Below are positions 1 through 44,348 of a stretch of DNA of 64,000 bases, piece by piece. How positions within the stretch are numbered: the stretch's first letter is position 1; each line of letters opens with the position of its first letter. Origin of the DNA: Micromonosporaceae bacterium (GTDB lineage Bacteria > Actinomycetota > Actinomycetes > Mycobacteriales > Micromonosporaceae); assembly GCA_036506795.1 (NCBI GenBank), contig DASXRC010000021.1, positions 17,190 through 81,189 on the forward strand. Direction: 5' to 3'. Both the position numbers and the translations under genes were made by a program. The notes under the pieces are model-generated. The model was given only the letters and a program-made list of their open reading frames with translations, had not been told where the DNA came from and made no database searches.

Positions 1-1
1 G

Positions 2-1207
2 GCCGGCTGGCTGGCCGCGGAGGGCGTCACGGTGCTGCACCTGACACCCCAGCTGGCCCGGCTGCTCGGTCGCGTGCGGACCGTGCTGCCCCGGATGAGG
101 CTCGTCGCGCTCGCCGGTGACCAGCTGCGATGGTCCGATGTGGACGCGCTGCGCCGGCTCGCCCCGGCCGCACGCGTGGTCAACTTCTACGGCACCACAG
201 AGACGCCGCAGGCGCAGGCCTGGTACGAGCCGACCCGGGACGGCGTTCGCGCCGGCCGCGGATCGCGGCCGGTGCCCGTGGGGGGCGGGATCGACGGCGC
301 ACAGCTTCTGGTCATCGGTCCGGATGGTCGGCCGGCGGCCGTCGGTGAGCAGGGGGAGGTCGTGGTCCGCAGCCGCTACCTGGCCACCGGCTACGCGACT
401 GGCGGACGGCTCGACGAGGAGCTGACGCGCGCCCGATTCTCAGGCGAAGGGGACGACCGCATGTACCGGACCGGAGACCTCGGCCGCCACGAACCCGACG
501 GGACCGTGGTGATCGCCGGACGCACCGACGGCCAGGTCAAGATCCGAGGATTCCGGGTCGAGGTCGGCGAGGTCGAGGCCGCGCTCCTTGGGTACCCCGG
601 CGTGCGCCAGGCGGTGGTGGTCACCGCTCGGCACGACGGCGAACTCGTCCTGCACGGCCATCTCGCCGCCGATCCGGGCGTCACGGTCGAGGCCGTGCGC
701 GGGCACCTCCGCACGGTCCTGCCGGCGTACGCGATGCCGGCGTCCCTGACCCTGCTGCCCGCGCTGCCGCTGACCCCCAACGGCAAGGTCGACCGCGACG
801 CGCTGCCCCGGCCGGTTCCGCGGCCGCCGGTCGGAGGCGCCGACGACCCCGCGACGCCGACCGAGTGGCTCGTCGCCGCGGTCTGGCAGCGGGTCCTCGG
901 CCTCCCCCGGGTCGGCCGCGGGGAGAACTTCTTCGAGGTCGGTGGCCACTCGATGGCCATCGTTGCGGTGCAGGCCGAACTGGCCGCGCGGCTCGACCGG
1001 GACGTCCCCATCGTCGACCTGTTCAGTCACCCGACCGTTGGCGCGCTCGCGGCCCATCTCGACGGCTCCGCCGCCGCGCCCGGTCTCGACCGCGCCGCCG
1101 AAAGGGTGGCCGCGCGGCGGGCTCGGGCGCTGCGCCGCCACACCGACCGAACCGGCGCCGCCGACGCCGGACCCGACGCGGCCGCACACGAGGAGGCCAG
1201 CAGATGA
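2..1207 (+). CDS. Non-ribosomal peptide synthetase, 3' fragment (end of adenylation domain + PCP); gene starts upstream of window
   Basis: Frame is open from the window edge (AGWLAAEGVTVLHLTP...). A-domain cores NFYGTTE, YRTGDLG, GRTDGQVKIRGFRVE and PNGKVDR are followed by the carrier motif FFEVGGHSM. Stop TGA at 1205-1207. Confidence 0.9.
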   Translation, partial: AGWLAAEGVTVLHLTPQLARLLGRVRTVLPRMRLVALAGDQLRWSDVDALRRLAPAARVVNFYGTTETPQAQAWYEPTRDGVRAGRGSRPVPVGGGIDGAQLLVIGPDGRPAAVGEQGEVVVRSRYLATGYATGGRLDEELTRARFSGEGDDRMYRTGDLGRHEPDGTVVIAGRTDGQVKIRGFRVEVGEVEAALLGYPGVRQAVVVTARHDGELVLHGHLAADPGVTVEAVRGHLRTVLPAYAMPASLTLLPALPLTPNGKVDRDALPRPVPRPPVGGADDPATPTEWLVAAVWQRVLGLPRVGRGENFFEVGGHSMAIVAVQAELAARLDRDVPIVDLFSHPTVGALAAHLDGSAAAPGLDRAAERVAARRARALRRHTDRTGAADAGPDAAAHEEASR

Positions 1208-1225
1208 GAAAGGCCAGCAGATGAG
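1194..1225. repeat. Direct repeat AGGCCAGCAGATGAG x2 (2-nt spacer) at the NRPS/PKS gene junction
   Basis: Copies read directly at 1194-1208 and 1211-1225. Copy 1 supplies the NRPS stop (TGA 1205-1207); copy 2 supplies the PKS start (ATG 1221). Confidence 0.9.
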
Positions 1226-4200
1226 CGAGAACACGGACAGCGCGGTCGAGCCGATCGCGGTCATCGGCCTGGCCTGTCGGGTGCCCGGCGCCGCCTCCCT
1301 CGACGAGTTCTGGGAGAACCTGCTGGGCGGGGTGGAGTCGGTCCACTTCTTCTCGCGCGAAGAGCAGGTCGCCATCGGGCTGCCCGAACGGGATCTCGAC
1401 GATCCCAGCTTCGTGCCGGCCGCTCCCGTGCTCGACGACGTCGCGGGATTCGACGCCGGGCTGTTCGGGATGACGCGGCGTGAGGCCGAGCTGCGGGATC
1501 CGCAGCAACGGCTATTCCTCGAGCTGTGCCACACCGCGCTGGAGAATGCCGGCTACGATCCCGGGCGCTATCCGAGCGACATCGGCGTCTACGGCGGCAT
1601 CGGCGCCGACGAGTACCAGTGGCTGTATATCCGGCGTAACCCGGCCGTGCTGGCCGCCACCGGGAATCTGGCCGTTTCCGTCGCCAACCACCCCGACTAC
1701 CTCGCGACGCTGGCCTCGTACAAGCTGAACCTTCGCGGTCCGAGCCTGACCGTCCACACCGCGTGCTCGACGACGCTGGTCGCGTTCCATCTGGCCTGCG
1801 AGGCCCTGCGCAACGGCGAGTGCGACATGGCCTTGACCGGGGGAGCCTCGATCGAGCTTCCGCCCGGGCGGGGGTACGTCCACGCCGACGGCGGCATCCT
1901 GTCCGTGGACGGGCACACCCGAACCTTCGACGCGTCGGCGAGCGGCACCGTCTGGGGCAGCGGGGGCGGCCTTGCCGTCCTTAAGCGTCTCTCCGACGCC
2001 CTCACCGACGGCGACCACATCCGGGCCGTGGTGCTGGGCAGCGCCATCAACAACGACGGGGCGACGAAGGTCGGTTTCTCGGCGCCGAGCCGTGACGGGC
2101 AGGCGTCGGTGATCGCGCAGGCCCTCGGCGTCGCGAACGTCGACCCCCGCACGGTGGGCTACGTCGAGGCACACGGCACCGCGACGGCGCTCGGCGACCC
2201 GATCGAGGTCGCGGCGTTGACCAGCGTCTTCGGTCGGGCGTCGACCGACACCGGCTGGTGCGCGCTGGGTTCGGTGAAGACAAACGTCGGCCACCTCGGC
2301 TCGGCGGCCGGCATCACCGGGCTGATCAAGACGGTGTTGTCTCTTGAGCACGGCCTGATCCCGCCGAGCCTGAACTTCGAGCGGCCCAACCCGAAGCTCG
2401 GCCTCGAGAACAGCCCGTTCTACGTCAACGCGACCCTGAGCAAGTGGCAACCGGACGACGGTTCGCGTCGGGCCGGTGTCAGCTCCTTCGGCATTGGCGG
2501 CACCAACGCGCATGTCGTCCTCGAGCAGGCGCCCGCACCCTCACGCCAACCGACGCCGCCAGTGGCAGAGACCGACCTGCGACCGACCCACCTGCTGCGG
2601 GTCTCGGCGCGGACCCAGGCCGCTCTCGACGCGCTGGCCGAGCGGCTGGCCGGGCACCTCGAGCGGCATCCCGACGTCGACCTCGCCGACGTCGCGTACA
2701 CGCTCCGGGTCGGGCGCGCTGAACTCGGGCACCGGTGTGCGGTGGTTGCCGGGGATGTCAGCCAGGCGGTGACCGGGCTGCGCGACCGGGAACGCCACAT
2801 CGCCGGCGCGCTGCCCGTCCGGCTGCCGCGGGTGGCCTTCCTCTACTCCGGGCAGGGTTCGCAGTACGCCGGGATGGGCGACGAGCTGTACCGGGCCAAC
2901 CCGGTGTTCCGCGACGCGGTCCAGGAGTGCCTGAACGCGCTGGACGGCGGCTTGGCCGACGAGCTGAGGCGCGTGCTGCTTTGCGCGCCGGACGGAGACG
3001 TCCACGCCAACGCCCGGCTGGCTCAGACCGCCCTCACCCAGCCCGCGCTGTTCACCGTCGAGTACGCGCTCGCCCGCCTCTGGGAGTCCGCCGGAGTCAC
3101 CCCGGCCGCCGCGATCGGCCACTCGATCGGCGAGTACGTCGCCGGCACGCTCGCCGGCGTCTTCCGCCCGTCCGACGCGGCTCGTCTCGTCGCCGGGCGC
3201 GGCCGGCTGATGCAGTCGATGCCGACCGGATCCATGCTCGCCGTGCAGCTCGACGAGGCCACGCTCGCCGGCCGCCTGCCGGACGGTCTGTCGATCGCGA
3301 CCGTCAACGGACCACGGGCGTGCGTCGTCGCCGGGGAGACCTCGCAGGTCGACAGCTTCGCCCAGGATCTGACGGCGAGCCGGGTCCCGTGCAAGCGGCT
3401 GCGGACGTCACACGCCTTCCACTCGCCGATGATGGAGCCGATCCTCGCGGAGTTCCGAGACGTCGTCGCCGGCGTGCCACGGCGGGCGCCGCAGGCACCG
3501 TTCCTGTCCAATGTGACCGGTGACTGGATCACTGCCGACGAGGCGACCGACCCGTCGTACTGGGCGCGGCACCTGCGGTCCACGGTGCGGTTCGGCGCGT
3601 GCGTGGCGACCCTGCTGGCCGACGGGGAGTGGCTGCTCGTCGAGTGTGGGCCCGGCAAACAGCTCGCCGGACTGGCGCGCATGCAGACCCCGCGCGACGG
3701 GGTGCCGCCCCTGGCCAGCCTGCCCGGGCCGGACGACCGGCAGACCGCCATGGAGGCCTTCCACACCACCGCAGGCCGGCTGTGGGTCAGCGGCGTCGCG
3801 CTCGACGGCGACGGCCTCCAGGGGAGGCGCCGCCGGGTGCCGCTCCCGCCTTATCCGTACGAGCGGAAGTCGTACTGGGTCGAGCCCACGGGGCCGCCGG
3901 CCTCCGCCGTAGCCGAGCCGACAAGGCGGCGGCCGCTCGATGAGTGGTTCACGGTGCCGGTCTGGCGGCAGGCGCTGCCGCGCGAACCCGCCGTGCCCGA
4001 GCGATGCCTCGTCTTCGCCGACGGTCCCGCCGCCGACGCCGTCGTCGCCGGACTCCGGGCGGCCGGCGCGCAGGTCATCCACGTCGCGCCGGGCACGGCG
4101 TACGCGAAGACCGGCGACGCCGCGTTCACCGTCCGGCCGGCCGCGCGGAGTGACTATGATGCGCTGTTCACCGATCTCGCGGCGCTGGGTGGCGTCCCCG

Positions 4201-6698
4201 CACGGGCCGTGCACGCCTGGGCGCTCGACGGGACGGTGGCCGCCGGTGACCCCGAGCTCGCCTGGGAGGCCCAGGACCGCGGCTTCTTCAGCCTGCTCTG
4301 CCTCACGCAGGCGGCCGCGACCGCCCAGGCGCCCCTCCACGTCGACGTGCTGACCGCGGGCACTCAGGACGTGACCGGAGGCGACGCGACCCGGCCCGAA
4401 CACGCGACCGTGGCCGGCATCGCGAAGGTCGTCCCGCTGGAGGTTCCGACGGTCACGGTGCGCCACGTCGACGTCGGCGACGACGTGGCCGACGCGGTCG
4501 ACGAGGTGTGCCGGGCTCCGGCGGACCGGGCGGTCGCGGTGCGTGGCGGGCGCCGCTGGATCCAGGACTACGAGCCGGTGACGCTCGCCGAGCCGACCGC
4601 CCCGCCGGGCCCGCGCGAGGGCGGCGCCTACCTCATCACGGGCGGGCTCGGCGGCCTGGGCATCACGCTGGCCGAGGACCTGGCGCGGCTGGCCCGGGCG
4701 AGGCTGATACTGGTCTCGCGGTCCGGGCTCCCGACCCGGTCGGAGTGGGACAGCCACCTGCGCCTGCACGGGACCACCGACCGGACGGGCAGGGCGATCG
4801 CCGCGATCCGCCGGATGGAGGACGCCGGCGCCGAGGTGCTGGTGTGCGCCGCGGATGTGTCCGATGAGGACGATCTGCGGAGCGTGCGTGAGCAGGTGTT
4901 CTCGACGTTCGGCCGCCTCGACGGCATCGTGCACGCCGCCGGCGTGCCCGGCGGCGGCATGACCGAGGTCAAGGAACGAGCGGCGGCCGAGGCCGTCCTG
5001 CTGCCCAAGGTGCGCGGCACGCTGATGCTTCGGCGCGTCTTCGGCGACCTACCGCTGGACTTCGTCACCTTGTTCTCGTCGGTGACCGCGGTCGCCGGCG
5101 GGTTCGGCCAGGTCGACTACTGCGCCGCCAACAACTTCCTCGACGCGTACGCGCGCGGCAGCCACGGGTGGTCCGCGCAGGTGACATCCATCAACTGGGG
5201 CGGCTGGCTGGAGGTCGGCATGGCCGCCGAGGTGGCCGCGCCCGCAACGTTCCGAGCGCTGCAGCACGGAGACCGGATCCGCCCGATCGACCATCCCGTG
5301 CTCACCGCCCACCACGAGGGCGGCGGCGAGGTGCTTCCATGGTTCAGCGGCGTCGTGGCGCCGGACACCCACTGGCTCCTGGACGAGCACCGCATCTCTG
5401 GCGTGCCGGTGGTTCCCGGCACGGCTCACCTGGAGACGGTGCGGGCCGCCTTCGCCGCGGCGTGGCCAGGAGCGGGTGACGTGGAGCTGCGTGACGTCGT
5501 GTTCGTCGAACCGATGGCGGTCGCGGACGGAGCCGCGGCCGAAGTCCGAGTGGCGTTCGCCGACGGCGTCGACTGCGTGGACTTCCAGCTTGCCGGCGTG
5601 CGGGCCGGTGCCACCACCGTGCACGTGCGCGGCAGCGCCGTCCGGCTCGACCCCGATCCCGCCCCGACGGTCGACCTGGCCACCGTCCGGGACCGCTGCG
5701 GTCTGACCGCGCACGATGTGGACCCAGCCGGCGAGCGGTCACACTCCGGGCTGCTGACGTTCGGAGACCGCTGGCGCGCCCTGCGTACGGTCCACATCGG
5801 ACCGGACGAGGAGCTGGCTCTCCTGGAGGCTCCTCCATCGGTCGCGGCCGAGCTGGACCGATGGGTGTTGCACCCGGCGCTGCTCGACGAGGCGACCTCG
5901 TTCGGCCGTCGGCACGGCGACGGCCAGTACCTGCCTCTCGGCTACGGCCGGATCCGGATACGCGGGGCGCTGCCGGCCCGGTTCTACAGCCACCTGCGCT
6001 ACCGGGGCGAGGCTCACGGCGAGGTGATCGCCGCCGACCTGTCGCTCCATGACGCGACGGGCCGCGAACTGGTCGCCATCACGGACTTTGTCCTGCGCCG
6101 CGTCGACGTGGCCGCAGTGACCGAGGCGGTCTCCGGCGTCGAGCCGGGCGCCGGCCCCTCCGGCACCGCGGCACTCCCGGAGGCGTCTGTCTCGACGGCG
6201 ACGGGCATTGCTCCGGCCGACGGAGCCGAGGCGTTCCGCCGGATCCTGGCCGCCAATCTGGCACCACAGGTGGTGGTCACCGCGCAGCCACTAGCACAGG
6301 TCGTGGCCGGCGTCACCAACGTCACCCAGGAGACCGTCGCCGACGAGCTCGTCGGCACGGCCGCCGCCGACCCTCGTCGCGACGCCAGCCGCGAGGGTTA
6401 CGTCGCGCCCCGAACCCGGCTGGAGACGACGCTAGCCGACGTGTGGGGTGCCGTCCTCGGCGTAGACGCGGTCGGCGTGGAGGACGACTTCTTCGACCTC
6501 GGCGGCAATTCGCTCGTCGCCGTCCAGTTGATCTCGGAGATCCGCAAGGCGACCGGGGCCCGACTGCCCATGCGCAGCCTCTTCGAGTCCCCGACGGTGG
6601 CCGGCATGGCCGCCCTCGTCGACGGCCTGGAGGCGGCCGCCGGGCCCGACCCGGGCGAGGACGCGATTCCCAGGCTGGCCAGGCCGACCGCCGAATGA
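1221..6698 (+). CDS. Type I polyketide synthase, one module, motif order KS-AT-KR-DH-carrier protein
   Basis: ATG 1221 is in frame with ORF 942..6698. KS motifs TACSTTL, EAHGTATALGDP, NVGHLGSAAG. AT motifs GHSIGEY and HAFH. KR motifs YLITGGLGGLG (about 4621) and YCAAN (about 5120). DH motifs HRISGVPVVP (His codon 5388-5390) and HPALLDE. Carrier motif FFDLGGNSL (Ser codon 6510-6512). Confidence 0.9.
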   Translation: MSENTDSAVEPIAVIGLACRVPGAASLDEFWENLLGGVESVHFFSREEQVAIGLPERDLDDPSFVPAAPVLDDVAGFDAGLFGMTRREAELRDPQQRLFLELCHTALENAGYDPGRYPSDIGVYGGIGADEYQWLYIRRNPAVLAATGNLAVSVANHPDYLATLASYKLNLRGPSLTVHTACSTTLVAFHLACEALRNGECDMALTGGASIELPPGRGYVHADGGILSVDGHTRTFDASASGTVWGSGGGLAVLKRLSDALTDGDHIRAVVLGSAINNDGATKVGFSAPSRDGQASVIAQALGVANVDPRTVGYVEAHGTATALGDPIEVAALTSVFGRASTDTGWCALGSVKTNVGHLGSAAGITGLIKTVLSLEHGLIPPSLNFERPNPKLGLENSPFYVNATLSKWQPDDGSRRAGVSSFGIGGTNAHVVLEQAPAPSRQPTPPVAETDLRPTHLLRVSARTQAALDALAERLAGHLERHPDVDLADVAYTLRVGRAELGHRCAVVAGDVSQAVTGLRDRERHIAGALPVRLPRVAFLYSGQGSQYAGMGDELYRANPVFRDAVQECLNALDGGLADELRRVLLCAPDGDVHANARLAQTALTQPALFTVEYALARLWESAGVTPAAAIGHSIGEYVAGTLAGVFRPSDAARLVAGRGRLMQSMPTGSMLAVQLDEATLAGRLPDGLSIATVNGPRACVVAGETSQVDSFAQDLTASRVPCKRLRTSHAFHSPMMEPILAEFRDVVAGVPRRAPQAPFLSNVTGDWITADEATDPSYWARHLRSTVRFGACVATLLADGEWLLVECGPGKQLAGLARMQTPRDGVPPLASLPGPDDRQTAMEAFHTTAGRLWVSGVALDGDGLQGRRRRVPLPPYPYERKSYWVEPTGPPASAVAEPTRRRPLDEWFTVPVWRQALPREPAVPERCLVFADGPAADAVVAGLRAAGAQVIHVAPGTAYAKTGDAAFTVRPAARSDYDALFTDLAALGGVPARAVHAWALDGTVAAGDPELAWEAQDRGFFSLLCLTQAAATAQAPLHVDVLTAGTQDVTGGDATRPEHATVAGIAKVVPLEVPTVTVRHVDVGDDVADAVDEVCRAPADRAVAVRGGRRWIQDYEPVTLAEPTAPPGPREGGAYLITGGLGGLGITLAEDLARLARARLILVSRSGLPTRSEWDSHLRLHGTTDRTGRAIAAIRRMEDAGAEVLVCAADVSDEDDLRSVREQVFSTFGRLDGIVHAAGVPGGGMTEVKERAAAEAVLLPKVRGTLMLRRVFGDLPLDFVTLFSSVTAVAGGFGQVDYCAANNFLDAYARGSHGWSAQVTSINWGGWLEVGMAAEVAAPATFRALQHGDRIRPIDHPVLTAHHEGGGEVLPWFSGVVAPDTHWLLDEHRISGVPVVPGTAHLETVRAAFAAAWPGAGDVELRDVVFVEPMAVADGAAAEVRVAFADGVDCVDFQLAGVRAGATTVHVRGSAVRLDPDPAPTVDLATVRDRCGLTAHDVDPAGERSHSGLLTFGDRWRALRTVHIGPDEELALLEAPPSVAAELDRWVLHPALLDEATSFGRRHGDGQYLPLGYGRIRIRGALPARFYSHLRYRGEAHGEVIAADLSLHDATGRELVAITDFVLRRVDVAAVTEAVSGVEPGAGPSGTAALPEASVSTATGIAPADGAEAFRRILAANLAPQVVVTAQPLAQVVAGVTNVTQETVADELVGTAAADPRRDASREGYVAPRTRLETTLADVWGAVLGVDAVGVEDDFFDLGGNSLVAVQLISEIRKATGARLPMRSLFESPTVAGMAALVDGLEAAAGPDPGEDAIPRLARPTAE

Positions 6699-6719
6699 CG
6701 TTCACCTGAGGAGGACGAC

Positions 6720-6941
6720 GTGTCTGACACCGAAGGCAGCGGCGGATCCCGCTACCTGGTGGTCATCAACGACGAGGAGCAGTACTCCATCTGGGCGGAG
6801 GACCGGCAGATCCCGGCCGGCTGGCGGGCGACCGGCTTCGCTGGCGACAAACTGGAGTGCCTGTCACACATCGAGACCGTTTGGACGGACCTGCGGCCGC
6901 GCAGCGTGCGCCTGGCCATGGCATCGGAGGAGGACACATGA
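6720..6941 (+). CDS. MbtH-like protein
   Basis: 73 aa with GTG start and GAGGAGGA RBS upstream. Signature RYLVVINDEEQYSIW...IPAGW...CLSHIETVWTDLRP, with the three conserved Trp. Confidence 0.93.
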   Translation: MSDTEGSGGSRYLVVINDEEQYSIWAEDRQIPAGWRATGFAGDKLECLSHIETVWTDLRPRSVRLAMASEEDT

Positions 6942-7888
6942 CCACGGCGTTGCCCATGACCGTGCCCGCCGACGGCACGCCCATCATCGAGTACATCACC
7001 GATCGGCGAGCCGAGCTGCGCGCCGCGCTGGCCGAGCACGGGGCGCTGCTGTTTCGGGGCTTCGACGTCGGTGGGGTCGACGGGTTCGACCGGGTGGTCC
7101 GCGCTCTGTCCGGCGCACCGCTGACCTACACGGAGCGCTCGTCGCCGCGCAGCACGATCAAGGGTCAGGTGTACACATCGACGGACTACCCCGCGGAGGA
7201 GGAGATCTTCCTCCACAACGAGAACTCCTACCAGGCGAGCTGGCCCCTGACCCTGTACTTCTACTGCATCCAGCCGCCCACCTCGCTCGGCGCCACACCA
7301 CTCGCCGACGTACGCCGGGTATACGCCGAGATCGATCCGACCATCCGCGACGAGTTCGAGCGGCGGCGCTGGACGCTGGTGCGCAACTTCTACCGCGATT
7401 TCGGTACGCCCTGGCAGGAGGTGTTCAACACCGACGACCCGGACGAGGTGGCCGCGTACTGCGGCCGGAACGACATCGGGATCGAATGGACGGCGGACGG
7501 CGGGTTGCGCACCAGGGCGGTGCGCGACGCGGTGCATCGCCGGCCCGGCAGCGAGGCGCCGAGATGGTTCAACCACGCCACGTTCTTCCACGTGACCACC
7601 CTCGCCAAGGACCTCCAGGAGGCGCTCCTCGCGATGTTCGGTGAGCAGGGGCTGCCCACCAACACGTACTACGGCGACGGCGGATCGATCCCGACCGAGG
7701 TGATGGACCAGCTCCGGGCCGCGTACCGATCGGTGACCGTTCGATTCGACTACGAGCGCGACGACGTGCTGGTCGTGGACAACATGACCGCCGCACACGG
7801 CCGGGAGCCGTTCACCGGGCCCCGGAAGATCGCGGTGGCGATGGCCGAGCCGTACGCGCCGGCCCCCAGCGGGAGCAGCGATGACTGA
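6938..7888 (+). CDS. TauD/TfdA (clavaminate-synthase-like) Fe(II)/2-oxoglutarate dioxygenase, probable amino-acid beta-hydroxylase
   Basis: ATG 6938 overlaps the MbtH stop (ATGA). Facial-triad-like FLHNENSY (HxE) and C-terminal [19 protein letters not shown]. Embedded between NRPS genes. Confidence 0.82.
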
Positions 7889-10800
7889 GTGGAGCGTCCC
7901 GGCCTCGTACGCGCAGGAGCGGATCTGGATCGCGAGCCAGGTGGACCCCGCGTCGCCGGTCTACAACGTCTCGGTGCCGTGGCGCGTCCCGGCCGGTCTG
8001 ACCGGCGAGCAGGTCACCGCAGCGCTCGGCGCGCTGGTCCGCCGACACGAGTCGCTGCGTACGCACCTACGCGTCGAGAACGGCACGCTGATGCAGGTCG
8101 TGCGGGATCGCGAACGCATCGACATGCCCGTCGTCGACCTGCGCGCCAGCTCCGATCAGCAACGGTCGGAGCGGGTCGACGCTCTCGCCGAGGAGCTGGC
8201 CCAAACGGCGATACCGCTCGACCGGCCGCCACTGTGGCGGGCCCGGCTGGTGCGCCTCGACGGCGAGGAATGGCTCCTGCTGTTCGTCGTCCACCACGCG
8301 GTCTTCGACGGCGGCTCCCTGGCCGTGTTCGGGCGCGACCTGCGGGCGTTGTCGCAGTTCGCGCTGACGGGCGCGCCGTTGGACCTGCCAGAGCCCGAGA
8401 TCCAGTACGCGGATTTCGCGGTCTGGCAGCGCGACCGGCTCTCCGGCGCCGAACTGAACCGGCAGCTCGCGTACTGGCGCGATCGACTGGCCGGCGCGGC
8501 TCCGGTCATCGGGCTCCCGCTCGACCACCCGCGCCCGTCGAAGCTGGGCTTCGCCGGCGACGAGATCCACTTCGAGCTGCCGGCCGGCACGTTCGATCGA
8601 GTCGGGGAGCTTGCTCGCGACTGCTCGGCGACACCGTTCACGGTGTTGCTGGCCGCGTTCGCCGCGCTGCTGTCCCGGCTGTCCGGCAGCGACGACCTGG
8701 TCGTGGGCGTCTCCACCGCGGGCCGGGACCGGCCCGAGCTCGACGACGTGATCGGGATGTTCGTCAACCCGGTCGCCCTGCGCTGCGACGTCGGCGGCGA
8801 TCCCACCGTCGCCGAGCTGATCGGTCGGGTCCGGGGATCCCTGATCGAGGCGCTCGAACACGCCGAGGCTCCGTTCCACCGCGTCGTCGACGCGGTCGCG
8901 CCGGCCTGGAACTCCTCGACACAACCGATCTTCCAGGTCGCTCTCAACTTCATTCCGGAGGCCGGCCTGGACCCCATCCCGCTGGGCACGACGAAGGACG
9001 ACCTCGCCTTCGACCTCACGGCCACCGAGGGCCGGCTGCTCTACCGCACGGCGCTCTGGGACCGGTCCACGGCCGAGGCGATCGTCCGGCGCTACCTGCG
9101 GCTGGTCCGGGCCGCCCTGGCCGACCCCGGTGCCCGCGTGTCGCAGATGCCGCTGCTCGACGGAGCCGAGGAGCGGCTCGTCCTCCAGACGTGGAACGAC
9201 ACGGCCCGGGAGAGCGCACCGGAGACGGTGACCGCGCTGATCGAGCGACAGGCGGCCCGCGGCCCGGACGCCGTCGCCGTCGTCGACAACGCAACGGCGC
9301 TCACGTACGCACAGCTCAACGGCGGCGCGAACCGGCTGGCTCGGGCCCTGATCGAGCGCGGCGCCGGGCCCGAGTCGCTCGTGGCGCTCGTCCTGCCGCG
9401 CTCCGCGGACCTCGTCGTGGCGCTGCTGGCGGTGCTCAAGGCGGGGGCGGCCTACGTGCCGATCGACCCGGACTATCCCGCGGAACGGATCGCGTATCTC
9501 CTCGGGGACGCGAGGCCGGCCGTCGTGGTGGCGTGCGTCGAAACCGCCGGCATCGCACCGGCGGACGCGCTGGTGCTGGCCCCATCGGCGGCCGGGCCGG
9601 CGAACCCCGATCTCACCGACGCTGACCGCGTCGCACCGCTCCGGCCGGGGCACTCGGCGTACGTGATTTACACCTCCGGCTCCAGCGGCAAGCCCAAGGG
9701 AGTCGTCGTCGAGCACCGGTCGCTGCACGCGTACCTGACGTGGGCGCGGGCCGCGTACCCCGGCCTGGCCGGCACCGCGCTGCTGCACTCCGCCTTGTCG
9801 TTCGACCTCACCGTGACCGGGCTGCTCGGCACGCTGAGCGCTGGCGGCACGATCCGGCTGGCCGGGCTCGACGAGGCCGCGGCCCGGTCCGGTGGTCCGC
9901 CGACTTTCCTGAAGGCAACTCCCGGCCAACTGTCCCTGTTGGACGATGGGCTTTCCCCGACCGACGATCTCGTGCTCGGCGGTGAGGCGTTGGCGGCCGA
10001 AGCCCTGGACGCTTGGCGGTCGACGCATCCGGGAGCGCGGGTCACGAACGAGTACGGCCCCACCGAGGCCACCGTCGGCTGCGTCAGCGCGCGATTCGAG
10101 CCGGGTGACGTCCTACCGCCCGGCCCGGTCGCCATCGGCTGCCCCAGCTGGAACACCCAGGCATACGTCCTTGACCGGGGGTTGCGGCCGGTTCCGCCGG
10201 GCGCCGTCGGCGAGCTGTACATCGCCGGTGATCAGGTCGCCCGAGGCTATCTCCGGCGGCCAGCACTGACCGCGGAGCGGTTCCTGCCGTGCCCGTTTGG
10301 AGCGCCCGGACGGCGGATGTACGCCACCGGTGACCTCGCGCGGTGGCGGGCCGATGGCACGCTCGAGTACCTCGGCCGGACCGATCAGCAGATCAAGGTG
10401 CGCGGCATCCGGGTCGAGCCCGGCGAGATCGAGTCGGCGCTGCTGGCTCGGCCGGGGGTACACGAGGCGGCGGTGGCGCTGCGCGCGCACGACGGAGCCG
10501 ACGACGAGACGCTCGTGGCGTACGTGGTGGGCACGGCGGACGGGGCCGACCTCGCCGACGGCCTCGCCCGCGTGCTGCCGGCACCGTTGGTGCCGAGCGC
10601 GTTCGTCCCGCTCGACCATCTTCCGACGACCCCGAACGGCAAGCTCGACCGCGAGGCGCTGCCCGCCCCCGTGCTGGCCTCCTCGCCGGGTTACGTCGCG
10701 CCCAGCACGGACTCCGAGGCGTTCGTGGCGGAGGTCTTCGCCGACATCCTGGGCGTGGAGAAGGTCGGCGCGCGGGACGACTTCTTCGCGCTGGGCGGCA

Positions 10801-11009
10801 ACTCGCTGCGCGGGATGCGGGCGATGGCGCGGATCCGCGCCGAGGTGGCCGTCGACGTGCCGATGCGGTCCTTGTTCACCCATCCTGTGGTAGCCGACCT
10901 GGCGGCCGAGATCGAGCGGCTGATCGGTGCCGAGCTCGACGACATGACCGACGCCGAGGTCGCGGCCCTCCTCGGCGGTGGGACGACCGGAGGGGGCAGT
11001 GCGGCATGA
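7881..11009 (+). CDS. Non-ribosomal peptide synthetase module C-A-PCP (hand-derived specificity code DLTKVGEVGK, Asn-like)
   Basis: C domain [10 protein letters not shown] domain [53 protein letters not shown]. The start overlaps the dioxygenase stop. Confidence 0.92.
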
Positions 11010-14000
11010 CGTCGGTGCGGGAGGGCGCCGTCGGGCACGCCACCGGCGTGGCCGGCGACACCGATCGCGCCGCCGCCCGGGACGCGCTGATCGCACAACG
11101 GTTGCGCCAGCGCCGGGACGGTCCCTCGCCGGTCGCCATTCCGCGGCGGCCGCCGGGCATGACACCCCCGCTGTCGTACGCCCAGGAGCGAGTCTGGTTC
11201 ATGAACCAGCTGGCGCCCGGCGAAGCCGCGTACCACATAGCCGTGCCCCTGCGGATCCGCGGGCCACTCGACTTCGACCGGCTGCGCGCGGCGCTGGCCG
11301 AACTGAGCCGGCGGCACGAGGCGTTGCGAACCCGGTTTCCGGCCGACGAGGACGGTCGGCCGCGCGTCGTCATCGAGGACGTCGTGGAGGTGCCGTTGCG
11401 GCTCGTCGACGCGCCGACCGAGGGGGCCGCGCAGGCCCTCATCGACCGGGCCGCGACCGAGCCATTCGACCTGGCGGACGGCCCGCTGCTGCGGGCGTTG
11501 CTCGTACGCCTCGCGGACGACGACCATCAGCTGCTGCTCTGCCAGCACCATATCGTCGGCGACGGCTGGTCGGTCGACGTGCTGTTGCGCGACTTGATCA
11601 CCTTCTACCGGTCGGGCTCGCTGCCGGCGCTGCCGGTCCAGTACGGCGACTTCGCGCGCTGGGAGGCCCAGCTGCTCACCGGCCCGGACGCCCGCCGCCA
11701 CCTCGACTACTGGCGACAGCGGCTCGCCGGCGTGCCGTCGCTGGAGCTGCCCCTCGACCGTCCGCGCCCCGCGACGCAGACCTACCGCGGCGACTTCATC
11801 GAGCTCACCGTCGACCGCGGCGTGACCGATGGACTCCTCGCCCTCGCCCGGAGCGCCGGAGGCACCATGTTCATGGCGCTGCTCGCGGCGTACCAGGTAT
11901 TGCTGGCGCGGCATTCCGGGCAGCGGGACTTCGCCGTTGGCGCCTCGGTCGCGGGCCGGTCCGCTCCCGACCTCGAGAACGTCGTCGGCATGTTCATCAA
12001 CATGCTGCCGCTGCGCGCCGAACTCGACGGCGATCCCACGTTCGCCGGCCTGCTGGCGCGCACGCGCCGGTGCGTGCTGGACGCGTTCGACCACGCCGAC
12101 GTGCCCTTCGCCAAGGTGGTGCGCGAGCTGGGCGTGCCCCGCGATGTCACCCGGTCGCCGGTTTTCCAAGCCATGTTCGTATTGCAGAACTACGAGATGG
12201 GGCGATTCAGTGACGTCGCCCGCGACGCCGATGTCTCGTTCGAGTGGCAGCCGATGGAGCTGCGCGCGACGCGGTTCGACATCGAGCTCCACCTGGTGGA
12301 GGTGTCCGGCGGGCTCTGGGGCAAACTCGTCTACAACACCGACCTGTTTCGTCGGTCCACTGTGGAGCGGCTCGCCACCGCGTACCAGACCCTCCTCCGC
12401 TCGATCGTGGCCGATCCCGGTGCGCGAGTGTCCGAACTCGACCTGCTTGCTCCCGACGAGCGTGCCCTGCTGCTGGACGGCTGGAACGACACGGCGACCG
12501 AATACCCCCACGCCGCGACGCTGCATCGCCTCGTCGAGGCACAGGTGGCCCGCACGCCGGACGTTGTGGCGGTCAGCGGCGAGGACCGGTCGGTGACGTA
12601 CGCCGAGCTGAACGCCGTGGCCAACAAGATCGGGCATCGGCTGCGCGCGGCCGGCGTCGGGCGCGAGACGCTGGTCGGCGTCTGCGCCGAACGGTCGGTC
12701 GAGCTCGTGGCGGCGCTGCTCGGAGTGCTCAAGGCGGGCGGCGCCTACGTGCCGCTCGATCCGGAGTATCCGCCCGACCGCCTTGCGTTCATGCTCACGG
12801 ATTCGGCCGCGCCGGTGGTGCTCGTCCAAGCCCACCTGCGGGAGGTGCTGCCCGCGACGGACGCCGCCGTGCTGGTTGTCGACGACGAGTCCGAGTGGGC
12901 GGGTCAGCCCGTGGACGATCCCGAGCCGGTCGCCGAGGCGACCAACGCCGCGTACGTCATCTACACGTCGGGCTCCACTGGGCGGCCCAAGGGCGTGCCG
13001 AACACCCATCGCGGCGTCGTGAACCGGCTCGACTGGATGCAGAAGGCGTACCGGCTGGGTGCCGGAGACCGCGTGCTGCAGAAGACGCCGGCGAGCTTCG
13101 ACGTCTCGGCGTGGGAGTTCTTCTGGCCGTTGCAGACCGGCGCGCGGCTCGTGCTCGCCAAGCCGGGCGGCCACAAGGACGTGGCGTACCTGCGCGACCT
13201 GATCGCCGCCGAGCGGGTGACCACCACGCACTTCGTGCCGTCGATGCTCACCGCCTTCCTGGCCCAGGAGGGCGTCGAGCGATGCGCCGAGCTGCGCACC
13301 GTGATCTGCAGCGGCGAGGAGCTGCCGGTCGGGACGGCGGTCGAGTTCACCTCCCGGCTGCCACGGTGCGAGCTGCACAACCTGTACGGGCCTACCGAGG
13401 CCGCCATCGACGTCAGCTCCTGGCAGTGCCGGCCGGAGGCGTTGGCCGGGGCGGCGACCGTGCCGATCGGTGCACCGATCGACAACCTGCGCCTGTACGT
13501 CCTGGACGAGCGACTGAACCCGGTGCCGGTGGGGGTCGTCGGGGAGCTCTACATCGCCGGCGTCGGGGTGGCCCGCGGCTACCACCGGCGACCGGCGCTC
13601 ACCGCGGACCGGTTTCTGCCCGAGCCGTTCGACGCGGAACCGGGCGGCCGGATGTACCGGACTGGCGACCGGGCACGCTGGCGCGCCGACGGCACGCTCG
13701 AGTTCCTCGGCCGGCTCGACCATCAGGTCAAGCTCAGGGGGCTGCGCATCGAGCTGGGCGAGGTGGAGGCCACCCTGCGCGGTTGCCATGGCGTGACCGA
13801 CGCGGCCGTCGTCGTACGCGAGGATGCGCCCGGCGACAAGCGCCTGGTCGCGTACGTGGTCGGCCCCGCGGCGAGCGCGGAGCTGAAGCCGGCCCTCAAG
13901 ACCACGCTGCCGGAGTACATGGTGCCGCAGGCGTTCGTCGCGCTGGACCGGCTGCCGTTGACGCCGAACGGCAAGCTCGACCGGGCGGCGCTGCCCGCAC

Positions 14001-16534
14001 CCGTCGTCACCCGCGATTCGTCGGTCGACCTCGTCGACCCGCGTTCGGAGACCGAGCGCCTGCTCGTGCGGATCTGGTCCGAGATCCTTGGTGTGCCGTC
14101 CCTGGGCATCGACGACGACTTCTTCCACCTCGGCGGCCATTCCATGCTGGCGACCCAGGTTGTGGCGAGGATCCGCAGACTCAACCGGAGCGGCCGCCGG
14201 GTCGGCGTGATGGACCTGTTCCAGCAGCGGACCGTGCGCGAGCTCGCCGCCTTCATCGATGCGGCGGTCGACCACGCCGCCGAGCGTCGCCTGCTCTACG
14301 AGCTGACCCGGCCGATCCCGGCCGGAGAGCGGACGCTGACCTACGTCTGCGTGCCGTACGGCGGGGGCAGCGCTGTGGTCTACCAACCGCTCGCCGACGC
14401 GCTGCCCCCCGGGCACGCGCTGTACGCGCTCGCGATTCCGGGACACGACGTCGGCCTCGACGAGACGGCCGTGCCGTTCGAGGAGCTGACCACCCGGGTC
14501 GCCGCCGAGGTGCTCGAGCGCATCGCGGGCCCCATCGCGTTGTACGGCCATTGCGGGGTCGGCAGCGCCATCGTCGCCGAGGTGGCCCGCAAGCTCGAGG
14601 CGGCCGGGCGCGAGCTGGAGGCCGTCTACATCGGAGGGATGTTCCCGTTCGCCCGGCCGAGGGGCGCCTACGCGGCGCTGCGCACCCGGTTGGAGAGGCT
14701 CCGCAGCAACCGCCACTACGCGAGCTGGCTGACGTCGATGGGCGTCGACATCAACGAGCTCGACCCGGACCAGGCGGACCGGATCATCAGCAACATGCGG
14801 GCGGACTCCCGGGCGTCCGAGGAGTACTTCACTCTCCTGCTCGACCACCGCGCCGAGAAGCTGCGCGCCCCGATCATCTCCGTGGTCGGGTCGGAGGACC
14901 CGGTCACGGACTACTTCACCGAGCGGTACGCCGAATGGCAGTTCCTCTCCGACACGCTCGGCCTCGTCGTGCTCGACCGGGCCGGCCACTTCTTCCTCAA
15001 GTACCGCGCCGACGAACTGGCCGAGATCGTCACCCGGGTGCACCCGGCAGTCGCGTCGGACGACGGCGGCCATCTCACGCCCGAGTCGCGCGGCCCGGAC
15101 GCCGCCTGGACGGTGCGGGGCTGGCAACGGGTCGGCGGCCGGCGGATGGACATCACCGTCGTCCGGCCGAGCATGGGCCGGTTCCTGGCGATCGCGGCCG
15201 GTCAGCTTGTCTCCACGGCCGGGTCGGCGCTGACCGCGTTCGCGCTCCCGGTCTGGCTCTACACGCGTACCGGTTCGGTGGCGAACCTGGGCCTGCTGTG
15301 GTCGCTGGCCCTGGTGTGCGGGGTGCTCACGCTGCCCGTGGCCGGCGCCGTCGCGGACCGACTCGACCGGCGGCGCATCATGGTGATCGCCAGCGGCGTG
15401 TCCGGGCTGCTCCAGCTGACGCTCGCCGGCCTGCTCTGGTCGGGCGGTCTGAACCTATGGGAGATCTACCTGCTCGTGTCGCTCGGCCAGGTGGCGGCCT
15501 CGTTCCAACGGATCGCCTTCCAGACCGCGATACCGCAACTGGTGCCGAAGCGCTACCTCGGTCACGCCACCGGCGTGGCACAGCTGTCCAACGGCTTCTC
15601 GATGCTGCTGATGCCGGTCGTGGCGGCCGGCCTGCTTGCCGCCATCGGGCTGACCGGCATCCTGCTGTTGGATGTGGCCAGCTATGTCGTCGCGATCGTG
15701 ACGCTGCTGCTCGTGCGCTTCCCGGACCTGCTGGGCTGGCGGCCGAGGGAACCGTTGCTGACGGCGATCGCGCGGGGCGGCCGCTACTCGTGGAACCACC
15801 GCGGGTTCCGGATGATGCTGGCGTACTTCGCCCTGGGCAACATCTTCCTGGCCCCGGCCCTGGTGCTCGTGGCGCCGCTGGTGCTCGCGTTCGGCACGGT
15901 GGCGCAGGTCGCGCAGGTCGCGGTCGCCGAGGCGCTCGGCGCGATCGCCGGCGGTGCGGCGATGGCGATCTGGGGCGGGCCACGACGTCGGCGCATGATC
16001 GGCGTTCTCATCGCCAACGCCGGCACCGCCACGGGATGCTGCGTCATCGGGATCCATGCGTCGGTCCCGGTTGCGGGGGTCGGCATGTTCGGCATGGCCG
16101 CGGCGATGGCCACCGCCCAGGGGATCTACATCACGATCGTTCAGGTGAAGGTGCCGCAGCGGTACCACGGTCGGGTCTTCGCGATCAACCAGACGCTGGC
16201 GTGGTCGACGCTGCCGATCGGCTTCGCGCTGCTCGCCCCGGCGGCCACCAGACTGTTCGAGCCGATGCTGGCGCCGGGTGGGGCGCTGGCCGGGTCCGTC
16301 GGTGTCCTGATCGGCGTCGGACCGGGCCGGGGGATCGGCTTCGGATACGTCGTGTTCGGGCTGGCCCTGGCGGTCGTGACCGCGGGTGGCGCGCTCGTCC
16401 GCATGCTGCGCCGGTTCGACATCGAGGTTCCCGACGCGCTGCCGGACGACCTCGTCGGTGCCCAGGAGCGCCGGCAGCGCTTGGCCTCGTCCGCGGCCCG
16501 GCGTCCGGTCGCCGCACCGGCACGTCGGGATTGA
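11006..16534 (+). CDS. Non-ribosomal peptide synthetase C-A-PCP-TE fused in frame to an MFS transporter (code DVWHISLIDK, Ser-like)
   Basis: ATG 11006 overlaps the previous stop (ATGA) and is in frame with ORF 10343..16534. C domain [10 protein letters not shown] domain [46 protein letters not shown] and then a 12-TM-like region follow, with no stop until 16534. Confidence 0.9.
14290..15060 (+). other. Thioesterase domain (type-II-TE-like motifs) with Cys at the nucleophile position
   Basis: Motifs [19 protein letters not shown] (TGC at 14552-14554 where GHSxG is expected), GSEDP and AGHFFL. Confidence 0.75.
15146..16531 (+). other. MFS (MFS_3 / EntS-like) transporter domain at the C-terminus of the NRPS
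   Basis: Hydrophobic multi-helix sequence begins at [26 protein letters not shown] motif-A-like [13 protein letters not shown]. Same frame as the TE, with no intervening stop in the ORF track. Confidence 0.8.
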
Positions 16535-16604
16535 CGCCGGCTGTGCCCGATGCTGTGATGCTGCGTACCGCCGGCCCCGGGGCGGCCGAGTCGAGGGAGT
16601 GGGG

Positions 16605-17057
16605 ATGGGCTTCGCCTCATTGGACGACCTGCGTAGTGCGGCCGGCACCGAGCTGGGCGTGACCGACTGGATCGAGATTGACCAGGACCGGATCGACCAG
16701 TTCGCCGACGCGACCGGCGACCACCAGTGGATCCACGTCGACCCGGAGCGCGCCCGGAGCGGCCCCTTCGGCGGCACGGTGGCGCACGGGTACCTGACGC
16801 TGTCGTTGATCCCGGCCTTGGCGGCCTCGGTGTGGTCGCTGGACAACGCCCGGATGGGCGTGAACTACGGCCTCAACAAGGTCCGCTTCCCCGCGCCGGT
16901 ACCGGTCGGCTCGCGCGTGCGCGCGCGCATCGAGCTGCTCGCCGTCGACGACGTGCCGGGCAACGGCGTCCAGCTCACCGCCCGGGTCACGGTGGAACGG
17001 GAGGGTGGCGACAAGCCGGTCTGCGTCGCCGAGACCGTGTCGCGGGTGTACGCGTGA
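16605..17057 (+). CDS. MaoC-family (R-specific enoyl-CoA hydratase-like) dehydratase
   Basis: ATG 16605 preceded by GAGGGAGTGGGG. Hot-dog motif ADATGDHQWIHVDPERA...GGTVAHGYLTLS. Confidence 0.85.
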   Translation: MGFASLDDLRSAAGTELGVTDWIEIDQDRIDQFADATGDHQWIHVDPERARSGPFGGTVAHGYLTLSLIPALAASVWSLDNARMGVNYGLNKVRFPAPVPVGSRVRARIELLAVDDVPGNGVQLTARVTVEREGGDKPVCVAETVSRVYA

Positions 17058-18037
17058 GAGCCTGGCGGGTCGCCGAACATGGCGAACCGGCCGCCGTCCT
17101 GCGCCTGGTGGACGCCGACCCGCCGGCGCCGGCGGAGGGTCAGCTGCTCGTGCGGGTACGGGCGACGGCTCTGAACTTTCCGGACGTGCTGCTCTGCCGC
17201 GGCACCTATCAGGTGCGCCCCCCGTTGCCGTTCACGCCCGGTGTCGAGCTGTGCGGCGAGGTGGTGGCCCTTGGCGGGGGCGTCGGTCGGTTCGCGGTCG
17301 GCGACCGGATCATCGGTACGCCGGCGCTGCCGCACGGCGCCCTTGCCGAGTACGCCCTGGTTGACGCCGTCGACGCGTATCCGGCGCCGGACGCCCTCGA
17401 CGACGCCGCCGCCGCGAGCCTGCATATCGCATACCAGACGGGATGGTTTGCCCTGCACCGGCGGGCCCGGCTGCAGCCCGGGGAGACGCTGCTCGTGCAC
17501 GCCGCGGCGGGCGGGGTGGGAAGCGCGGCGCTCCAGCTCGGTTCGGCCGCCGGCGCGCGGGTGATCGCGGTCGTCGGCGGCGCCCGGAAGGCGGAGGCGG
17601 CGACGGCGCTGGGCGCCGACGTGGTGATCGACCGGCGCGAGCGGGACGTTGTCGCGGCGGTGAAGGACGCGACGGGCGGGCGCGGCGCGGATGTGGTCTA
17701 CGACCCGGTTGGCGGCGACGCCTATGCGGCCTCCACGAAGTGCGTGGCGTTCGAGGGCCGCATCCTGGTGATCGGCTTCGCCAGCGGCGCAATCCCGACG
17801 CCGTCGCTCGCGCACGCGCTGATCAAGAACTACTCGATCGTCGGGCTGCACTGGGGGCTGTACAAGAGCCACGACCGGTCGGCGATCGACGAGACCCACG
17901 AGCGCCTCGGCGAGTTGGCCGCGCAGGGCGTCATCGACCCGTTGATCGGCGGCCGGCTGCCGCTCGAGGACGCCGCCGACGGCCTGACCCGGCTCGCCGC
18001 CGGAGACAGCATCGGTCGTCTCGTTGTGCTGCCGTGA
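17054..18037 (+). CDS. MDR-superfamily NADPH:quinone oxidoreductase / enoyl-reductase-like protein
   Basis: GTG 17054 overlaps the MaoC stop (GTGA). Motifs LVRVRATALNFPDVLLCRGTYQ..PFTPGVELCGEVV and the nucleotide loop VHAAAGGVGSAA. Confidence 0.85.
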   Translation: MRAWRVAEHGEPAAVLRLVDADPPAPAEGQLLVRVRATALNFPDVLLCRGTYQVRPPLPFTPGVELCGEVVALGGGVGRFAVGDRIIGTPALPHGALAEYALVDAVDAYPAPDALDDAAAASLHIAYQTGWFALHRRARLQPGETLLVHAAAGGVGSAALQLGSAAGARVIAVVGGARKAEAATALGADVVIDRRERDVVAAVKDATGGRGADVVYDPVGGDAYAASTKCVAFEGRILVIGFASGAIPTPSLAHALIKNYSIVGLHWGLYKSHDRSAIDETHERLGELAAQGVIDPLIGGRLPLEDAADGLTRLAAGDSIGRLVVLP

Positions 18038-18572: not shown

Positions 18573-18662
18573 CTTTCTCCAATACAATCCGCCCGGCCAA
18601 CCAGGGCAAACCGGATCTTCCTTCATGGACAGCGATCAGAACGACTGGCAGGGTGGTGGCTT

Positions 18663-19832: not shown

Positions 19833-19888
19833 TCCCGGCTGGCCGGCTACGCTGAGCCTGCAGGGGCGGCGACGCTCGGGGGTTAACG

Positions 19889-44340: not shown

Positions 44341-44348
44341 GGTGCCTC

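Follow-up and report, generated by a model that had tools for sequence, protein, structure and literature searches.

The window analyzed here is a 64,000-nucleotide (nt) stretch of DNA from a Micromonosporaceae bacterium (GenBank assembly GCA_036506795.1, contig DASXRC010000021.1, positions 17,190 to 81,189 of the forward strand), with a G+C content of ~72%. Its left end carries part of a biosynthetic gene cluster in which nonribosomal peptide synthetase (NRPS) genes flank a type I polyketide synthase (PKS) gene. We read positions 1-16534 as the 3' two-thirds of an eight-gene operon for a short peptide-polyketide hybrid, with a probability of about 0.6; the core cluster probably consists of eight genes, of which five and a half lie inside the window. 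Domains were called with Pfam, and gene overlaps and motifs were read directly from the sequence. [quoted passage not shown] The genes in this part of the window are as follows.

2 to 1207, plus strand: 3' end of an NRPS gene, coding for the last ~270 amino acids (aa) of an A domain and a PCP (Pfam AMP-binding, AMP-binding_C, PP-binding), with its 5' part upstream of the window.
1221 to 6698, plus strand: single-module type I PKS, 1825 aa (Pfam).
6720 to 6941, plus strand: MbtH-like protein, an A-domain helper, 73 aa (Pfam MbtH, E 1e-19).
6938 to 7888, plus strand: TauD-family Fe(II)/2-oxoglutarate oxygenase, 316 aa (Pfam TauD, E 2.5e-46).
7881 to 11009, plus strand: NRPS module C-A-PCP, predicted to activate Asn, 1042 aa (Pfam).
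11006 to 16534, plus strand: terminal NRPS (NRPS2) C-A-PCP-TE-MFS, predicted to activate Ser, 1842 aa in one open frame (Pfam).

Read along the plus strand, the Pfam string is A-PCP / KS-AT-KR-DH-ACP / MbtH / TauD / C-A-PCP / C-A-PCP-TE-MFS, followed by MaoC and a medium-chain dehydrogenase/reductase (MDR), both treated below with the downstream flank. The E-values of the cluster domain calls lie between 1e-10 and 1e-112 and thus exclude chance. A preliminary description of this DNA had named the same architecture and proposed domain calls with hidden Markov models as the check, and Pfam reproduced every domain. It had also pointed to gene overlaps at four positions, all of which are present in the sequence (ATGA at 6938-6941, 8 nt at 7881-7888, ATGA at 11006-11009 and GTGA at 17054-17057). 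The MbtH gene has a GGAGG ribosome-binding site and a GTG start. The first NRPS gene enters the window truncated at position 2, and the hybrid NRPS-PKS-NRPS line therefore extends upstream, as that description had recognized.

The upstream part can be judged from relatives. A scan with the PKS, using one genome per species, gave 80 loci with full-length matches, the best with only 64% identity. A wider protein search reached 85% on a metagenome contig (L081) and 67-68% in Longispora and Allocatelliglobosispora, and full-length homologues with 56-68% identity occur in many actinomycetes. L081 is collinear with window positions 1-9201 at 86.9% nucleotide identity, and its gene order is CorA, type II thioesterase, small LanB, a 1681-aa A-T-C-A-T NRPS, PKS, MbtH, TauD and the next NRPS. 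Another relative, L083 (contig DASXRQ010000199.1 of GCA_036506495.1), carries the 1681-aa NRPS as in L081. Longispora fulva (L082; JADOUF010000001.1 at 3.233-3.259 Mb) follows a plan like that of L081, but with the type II thioesterase fused to the LanB domain (L082:1945-5052) and the Asn module split into a C-T protein and a stand-alone A-T protein, the latter adjoined by TauD. The MbtH gene adjoins the PKS gene in most related loci.

The window fragment at 2-1207 shares 83% amino acid identity with the C-terminus of the 1681-aa NRPS of L081 and, by this match, is the second module of an A-T-C-A-T NRPS. The preliminary description had an aminoacyl starter loaded upstream of the window. Loading upstream stands, but because the A-T-C-A-T NRPS precedes the PKS in L081, the chain entering the PKS would more likely be a dipeptide than a single aminoacyl group. 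The first A domain of the upstream NRPS reads DVLCIAWVC., and VHHTVFDG is the motif of its C domain in L081 as well as in L082. The visible specificity residues of the A domain before the PKS are HAAFQAK in the window and DPRHAAFQAK in the L081 orthologue. We take Pro-Arg at positions 236 and 239 to occur in Lys2/aminoadipate-activating domains as well, which would presumably suggest an acidic substrate; this is a lead only. An LgrA-like (Gly) assignment of the upstream A domain was considered and rejected, the strong score being an artefact of two A-domain hits summed in one chain.

The PKS module contains KS (1248-2381), AT (2838-3800), a Beta-ketacyl_N region (4062-4493), KR (4623-5210), DH (5292-6119) and ACP (6429-6620). 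In the Pfam calls the KR (aa 1135-1330) lies before the DH (aa 1358-1633) and ACP (aa 1737-1800), which is a non-canonical order. Pfam supplies only a family name for the Beta-ketacyl_N region, which we read as the structural region preceding the KR. The active-site Cys of the KS lies in HTACSTTL, the AT carries GHSIG at about aa 644-648 and HAFH at aa 731-734 (nt 3411), and the KR has TGGLGGLG and a catalytic Tyr in VDYCAAN. The DH motifs are HRISGVPVVP (nt 5388) and HPALLD (nt 5886), and the ACP Ser lies in LGGNSL. All of these catalytic motifs, and the serines of the carrier proteins, are intact. HAFH, already highlighted in the preliminary description, is of the malonyl type. Because the KR and DH motifs are intact, the default reading is that the module would make a 4-amino-2-enoyl (vinylogous) unit, the unit expected from a KS-AT-KR-DH module placed after an NRPS (PMC13096860). 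The earlier proposal of one C2 unit, reduced and dehydrated to a vinylogous gamma-amino acyl unit, is supported to that extent.

The KR-before-DH order is rare, and a 2026 survey of 2,354 PKS/NRPS systems with it sorted them into seven clades (PMC13110770). In clade I the A domain preceding the PKS is Ser-specific, and the systems make the 4-amino-2,4-pentadienoate (APD) of the rakicidins and BE-43547; clades II-VII have a non-Ser A domain, and their metabolites "remain unknown" (PMC13110770). The APD PKS module alone installs the warhead by way of a His-Asp dyad in the DH, and a second His five residues after the first is conserved in all APD producers, yet dispensable (bioRxiv 10.64898/2026.09.17.752105). 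We therefore treat the second His as a clade marker and not as a requirement. A rakicidin-type APD cluster was our first suspicion for the window, which has the KR-DH order and the HxxxGxxxxP/HPALLD dyad in common with that group (bioRxiv 10.64898/2026.09.17.752105). Membership in the rakicidin/BE-43547 family of APD cyclolipodepsipeptides is now extremely improbable and is refuted on the defining Ser criterion. A Ser code before the PKS would read DVWHxSLxDK, whereas DPRH..xQ[AV]K is found in 18 loci (16 scan loci together with L081 and L082) whose pre-PKS A-domain code matched this type. The residue five after the catalytic His of the DH is Val in the window, and none of the 52 related loci with a recognized motif has His there. 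No lipid-building PKS or CoA-ligase starter lies upstream in L081, the PKS is followed by two NRPS modules, and the release domain is of another kind. The suspicion was accordingly dropped because the A domain is not of the Ser type, the DH marker residue differs and the upstream genes do not fit, and, judged by its flanking A domain, the window PKS is a member of the non-Ser groups, clades II-VII.

The best solved relatives of the KS-AT region (1248-3800) are PDB entries 8XJU/8XJY, named "Polyketide synthase" (E 1e-229). Entry 8XJZ also holds a 1634-aa "Peptide synthetase", which has the size of the A-T-C-A-T NRPS and is the second-best match for the upstream A domain. A literature search on 8XJU/8XJY/8XJZ found nothing; their source may be a solved member of the window's own family.

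The small LanB of L081 (784 aa; L081:2591-4945) has a Lant_dehydr_N domain only. It had no match in PDB or NCBIfam, and tblastn found no copy inside the window. The gene tables of L081 and L082 hold no gene for PF14028 (Lant_dehydr_C, the elimination domain). By the criterion of PMC11212132, the lack of an elimination-domain gene near the small LanB favors a ligase resembling the peptide aminoacyl-tRNA ligases (PEARLs) over a dehydratase. LanB-like genes occur in ~2000 NRPS/PKS clusters, of which only SnaE of the threopeptin cluster has been characterized; SnaE ligates Thr to a free carboxylate made by a ureido-forming C domain with the signature EHHxxHDG (PMC11212132). If it acts like SnaE, the small LanB would take an amino acid from aminoacyl-tRNA and join it to a free carboxylate. 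A threopeptin-like ureido chain reversal was considered and rejected on the C-domain motif, VHHTVFDG instead of EHHxxHDG. With a motif of this kind the chain should not be reversed. The small LanB has its own distribution among the related loci. One or two small LanB genes lie just upstream in 30 of the 41 loci in which the module preceding the PKS is C-T and lacks an A domain, and 19 have a tandem pair (for example L009:2197-4485 and L009:4506-6809); only 1 of the 17 A-T-C-A-T loci has a small LanB in its flank. The pattern points to a tRNA-dependent enzyme as a possible source of the amino acid in loci that lack the A domain before the PKS.

Downstream of the PKS, the Asn module comprises C (7896-9176, motif VHHAVFDG), A (9243-10643) and PCP (10725-10910). 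Its A-domain code, read by hand alignment to GrsA, is DLTKVGEVGK with Glu at position 322; as the Asp type has His at this position, we assign Asn rather than Asp. Of 33 related TE-MFS loci, 30 carry DLTK[ILV]GEVGK. The TauD protein has an H93-N-E95 motif, and the His in AAHGR near aa 286 is, in our own reading, the probable distal iron ligand. TauD orthologues in Micromonospora clusters are 73-79% identical, and no AsnO match was found among PDB structures at E<=1e-5. The H-x-E motif and the overlap of the TauD gene with the Asn module gene make it likely that TauD is a beta-hydroxylase of the Asn residue, giving beta-hydroxy-Asn. Its position beside the stand-alone A-T protein in L. fulva points to the carrier-bound form of the amino acid as its substrate.

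The terminal synthetase, NRPS2, consists of C (11168-12475), A (12536-13975), PCP (14060-14257), TE (14345-15031) and MFS (15188-16231). Its A-domain code, DVWHISLIDK, predicts Ser, and the Asn and Ser codes are both kept in about 30 of the 33 TE-MFS loci, which come from Micromonospora, Amycolatopsis, Actinophytocola, Planomonospora, Microtetraspora and Streptomyces. The preliminary description had named (beta-hydroxy)Asn/Asp followed by Ser; the codes bear this out with Asn in the first place.

That description had also called the TE unusual, and it is so in three respects: a Cys nucleophile, a triad like that of ObiF1 and a fused MFS exporter. The nucleophile motif is GHCGVG where a serine hydrolase reads GHSxG, and GHCG[VI]G is invariant in 34 related TE-MFS loci. 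The best PDB match of the TE is ObiF1, the TE of obafluorin biosynthesis (6N8E, E 1.4e-29), with RifR at 1e-10. Cys1183 (codon 14552-14554), Asp1298 (at 14897, in SEDP) and His1328 (at 14987, in RAGHFF) align with Cys1146, Asp1254 and His1284 of ObiF1 in a phmmer sequence alignment, the ObiF1 residue numbers being those of PMC6668435 and an offset of 20 residues in the PDB chain being allowed for. Among solved NRPS TEs, only ObiF1 (beta-lactone) and SulM (beta-lactam) have a Cys nucleophile with Asp in position II (PMC11298585). The Gln-Cys-Asn motif of SulM is absent from the window TE, which has His-Cys-Gly, and a beta-lactam is for this reason not expected.

The MFS part has ~10 hydrophobic segments and matches Pfam MFS_1/MFS_3. 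A wider search for Cys-TE-MFS proteins covered 1.84 billion cluster representatives (50%-identity clusters) and found the Cys-TE fused to an MFS in at least 70 long NRPS representatives, nearly always with YGHC..G. As the fusion recurs in these and in the 34 loci, it is not a frameshift artefact. The terminal codes among 75 representatives include Ser (14), Asp-like (~27), Orn-like (5), Thr (3) and Gly (3). The idea that a Cys-TE always signifies a beta-lactone was rejected on the Gly- and Orn-type terminal modules of this wider family; the Cys-TE-MFS fusion is a general release-plus-export device and not a beta-lactone marker. A literature search for NRPS-MFS or TE-MFS fusions found no description of one.

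For the window cluster, release as an N-acyl serine beta-lactone through the Ser beta-hydroxyl would be the favored mode, a tentative preference at clearly less than even odds; otherwise hydrolysis or a larger cyclization is likely. One alternative keeps the same assembly line and has the Cys-TE hydrolyze the chain or form a larger ring, with the small LanB adding a residue from aminoacyl-tRNA to the C-terminal Ser carboxylate. In its favor, C-terminal carboxylates are the sites of PEARL action, and SnaE works on an NRPS product with a free carboxylate (PMC11212132). This alternative is also suited by the lack of a listed Lant_dehydr_C gene near the small LanB in L081 and L082 and the Gly- or Orn-type terminal modules, for which a beta-lactone is impossible or unlikely. 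The exporter-fused TE suggests, however, that the product leaves the cell, away from a cytoplasmic tRNA-dependent ligase. The triad arrangement is moreover that of ObiF1 and SulM, tied to closure of a four-membered ring (PMC11298585), and 32 of the 33 loci of this subfamily have a beta-hydroxy amino acid as the last residue. We consider hydrolysis or larger ring formation followed by such a ligation rather unlikely.

The same set of genes could be taken as a siderophore toolkit. TauD and MbtH beside an Asx module are common in beta-hydroxy-Asp siderophore clusters, the MFS part matches MFS_3 (Pfam "Transmembrane secretion effector"), a family that we take to include the enterobactin exporter EntS, and the terminal residues of the wider Cys-TE-MFS family (Ser, Asp-like, Orn-like, Thr) form a siderophore-like palette. 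A metal-binding, siderophore-like product, made and expelled with an EntS-type exporter, MbtH, TauD and Ser/hydroxy-Asx, is nevertheless quite improbable. Position 322 of the Asn module has Glu (Asn type) and not His (Asp type), and iron is poorly bound by beta-hydroxy-Asn. Within 24 kb downstream, or upstream in L081, there is no sign of a siderophore-binding protein, an uptake permease or a reductase, and neither the KR-DH PKS unit nor the small LanB has a usual role in siderophores.

Returning to the peptide-polyketide operon, we infer its chemistry and product from what was read directly, namely domain content and order, motifs, codes, cross-genus conservation and the similarity of the TE to ObiF1. 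The upstream A-T-C-A-T NRPS would make a dipeptidyl thioester, its C domain having an ordinary amide-forming motif and its second amino acid being selected by the unusual non-Ser A domain (DPRHAAFQAK). The PKS would add one malonate, which KR and DH would reduce and dehydrate to the 4-amino-2-enoyl unit. The C-A-PCP module would then add Asn, probably beta-hydroxylated by TauD on its carrier, with MbtH helping the A domains, and the last module would add Ser. The chain would move to Cys1183 of the ObiF1-like TE and be released, and the fused MFS would export the product at the site of release; the small LanB would act at an unspecified point. As the product we propose a short enoyl peptide with (beta-OH)Asn-Ser at its end, which may be released as a serine beta-lactone.

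Several observations weigh against this proposal. The window TE has a one-residue insertion at the nucleophile (GHCGVG against GHCAG in ObiF1), and a Cys-TE alone is no proof of a beta-lactone, given that terminal codes vary and Gly cannot form one. A beta-lactone end would leave no free C-terminal carboxylate for a PEARL-type enzyme, and the small LanB would need another site. The gene content upstream of the window is deduced solely from relatives. In the PKS, the malonyl call from HAFH could be wrong, because motif prediction failed for the related SnaB, for which malonyl was predicted and methylmalonyl is used (PMC11212132). In the KR, the LDD and Trp motifs for stereochemistry are both missing, and the KR-DH pair of rhabdobranin is reported to be linked to Arg epimerization and not to a simple enoyl product (bioRxiv 10.64898/2026.09.17.752105).

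The terminal synthetase is also widely distributed. One JGI metagenome protein matches NRPS2 with 100% identity across 97% of the query and differs in its start call; an 89% relative occurs in a Micromonosporaceae metagenome-assembled genome, and relatives with 72-75% identity occur in very many Micromonospora species, several of them labeled "non-ribosomal peptide synthetase/MFS transporter" by NCBI. Orthologues are present in cultivable species such as M. chalcea and M. aurantiaca. Exact-sequence look-ups of the PKS and TauD proteins gave no match, and NCBIfam has no specific model above cut-off for NRPS2 or the PKS. No characterized cluster matched in a comparison with published cluster descriptions rather than MIBiG, and a literature search for a Micromonospora product of this cluster found nothing relevant. 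The preliminary description had likewise been unable to match the locus to a characterized cluster, and the products of the nearest described groups are reported as unknown (PMC13110770, PMC11212132). For the product, its view of the locus as the best candidate for something new is fair; the family of genes, on the other hand, is common in Micromonospora and other rare actinomycetes. The cluster is thus an orphan of a gene family that is widespread in Micromonospora, Amycolatopsis and related genera.

Three further genes near the cluster bear on its extent.

16605 to 17057, plus strand: MaoC-type hot-dog hydratase, 150 aa, of doubtful cluster membership (Pfam MaoC_dehydratas).
17054 to 18037, plus strand: MDR-family NAD(P)H oxidoreductase of the PIG3/quinone-reductase type, 327 aa, of doubtful cluster membership (Pfam ADH_N, ADH_zinc_N).
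22361 to 23092, minus strand: Sfp/HetI-type phosphopantetheinyl transferase (PPTase), 243 aa, a possible helper (Pfam ACPS; weak NCBIfam HetI and AcpT matches).

The plus-strand run stops at 18037, since a hemerythrin gene on the opposite strand (18066-18635) follows directly after the MDR gene. MaoC starts 70 nt after the NRPS2 stop codon on the same strand with no terminator-like site between, the MaoC and MDR genes overlap each other, and both are kept in the 89% relatives L083 and L084. These points would suit an action of MaoC and MDR in trans on the enoyl intermediate (hydration/reduction), giving a saturated gamma-amino acid unit, and the preliminary description had proposed MDR as a trans enoyl reductase. 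The distribution of the genes speaks against it. MaoC and MDR are present only in these near relatives and absent from all 80 related loci (one unrelated 32% match aside), some of which extend 3-5 kb beyond the TE-MFS gene, and from L. fulva. The flanks of L083 and L084 are wholly syntenic, up to the Na+/H+ antiporter, which makes retention there uninformative on function. The MDR protein is of the PIG3/quinone-oxidoreductase type (best NCBIfam match quinone_pig3, below cut-off) and not of the PKS trans-enoyl-reductase type. The proposal for MDR finds no support; we regard the two as flanking genes, for which a role in the pathway is improbable.

The PPTase gene, found where the preliminary description had placed an Sfp-type enzyme, codes for an ACPS-family protein; it is separated from the cluster by unrelated genes and is kept at the same place in L083. 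In another related locus (L022) an ACPS domain is fused to a type II thioesterase at the cluster head. The PPTase may serve the cluster. Between cluster and PPTase, positions 20646-22307 code for a zf-UBP zinc-finger protein, an anti-sigma-type HATPase_c_2 kinase and a MEDS-STAS protein, all kept in L083, which we read as a partner-switching regulatory set. The pirin and short-chain dehydrogenase/reductase (SDR) genes at 19856-20623 and 23577-24398 have no counterpart in the otherwise syntenic L083 flank and appear to be small insertions specific to this lineage.

The rest of the window, from 24 to 64 kb, holds genes for transport and for sugar and inositol metabolism. Two MMPL-family transporter genes (34532-36847, minus strand; 40864-43173, plus strand) are separated by 4 kb that hold a CBS-domain gene and unassigned open reading frames. 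A sugar-utilization block at 43570-54271, which looks like a chito-oligosaccharide or glucosamine locus, codes for an SDR, a ROK regulator, a solute-binding protein, a permease, a SIS-domain protein, an exo-beta-D-glucosaminidase-like enzyme of glycoside hydrolase family 2 (GH2) and a GH20 hexosaminidase. At 58016-63999 lie inositol-catabolism-like genes for a GFO/IDH/MocA oxidoreductase, a GntR-UTRA regulator, a Cgl0159-like protein and KduI/IolB, and a gene for a thiamine pyrophosphate enzyme in this block runs off the window end.

The compact operon joins three poorly understood features, namely a PKS with inverted KR-DH order, a small LanB/PEARL-like enzyme and a Cys-TE-exporter fusion. 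KR-DH chemistry outside the rakicidin family is an explicit open question (PMC13110770), and the predicted product, with groups reactive towards proteases or hydrolases, would be a plausible new inhibitor scaffold. In its boldest form the proposal holds that the family makes a doubly electrophilic peptide, with a vinylogous Michael acceptor and a C-terminal serine beta-lactone, by means of an ObiF-like Cys-TE fused to an MFS pump, while a tRNA-dependent small LanB adds or supplies a residue. We judge this combination unlikely. If it were true, a self-toxic warhead would be formed and expelled in one step. Nonribosomal synthesis would then have its first device that couples export to release, and most Micromonospora would share a new class of peptide beta-lactones. 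If the product were an ordinary linear peptide acid, the locus would be just one more orphan cluster.

Four known systems invite comparison. With the APD bimodules NRPS(Ser)-PKS of rakicidin, BE-43547, vinylamycin and microtermolide, the window has in common a KS-AT-(DHt)-KR-DH-ACP module of ~1800-1900 aa (PMC5075396, PMC13110770, bioRxiv 10.64898/2026.09.17.752105), the position of the PKS between NRPS modules and an intact DH His-Asp dyad. It differs in the A domain before the PKS, and because this is non-Ser, the second (gamma,delta) dehydration to APD would have no substrate here. The window cluster also has no second DH His and no lipid-starter PKS, and its downstream modules, release domain and accessory genes are other ones.

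The sna (threopeptin) cluster of Stackebrandtia nassauensis codes for SnaA (A-T-Curea-A-T), SnaB (KS-AT-T), MbtH, a TE, an acyl-CoA dehydrogenase and the PEARL-like SnaE (PMC11212132). The upstream part of the window cluster, as seen in L081 and L082, resembles it in that a TE, stand-alone or fused, and a gene with Lant_dehydr_N only precede the A-T-C-A-T NRPS, after which come a one-module PKS and MbtH, and in having no precursor peptide and no elimination-domain gene nearby. Unlike sna, its C domain has VHHTVFDG and not EHHxxHDG, with no obvious free N-side carboxylate. Its PKS is equipped with KR and DH and is succeeded by two further NRPS modules and a Cys-TE-MFS; an acyl-CoA dehydrogenase is absent.

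The window TE belongs with ObiF1 (6N8E; PMC6668435) and the SulM TE of sulfazecin (PMC11298585) to a family with a type-II-TE-like fold and Cys after Gly-His, in which Asp in position II (after strand beta7, RifR-like) and the His in GHFF are aligned. As in obafluorin, the terminal residue is a beta-hydroxy-alpha-amino acid. In contrast to ObiF1, the window TE is fused to an MFS of the 12-transmembrane type and not to an MbtH-like domain, and its nucleophile motif has one extra residue. Some of its wider relatives, unlike ObiF1 and SulM, end in residues unable to form a beta-lactone, and ring formation in the window system is a prediction only.

Vinylogous amino acids are made in the pathways of barnesin A, syringolin and glidobactin. 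In the barnesin A pathway, as proposed here, an NRPS chain is passed to a KS-AT-KR-DH-type module to give a 4-amino-2-enoyl Michael acceptor (PMC13096860). Such pathways have a canonical DH-KR order or a trans-AT PKS and end at the PKS or in a macrolactam, whereas the window line has the inverted domain order and adds two further amino acids.

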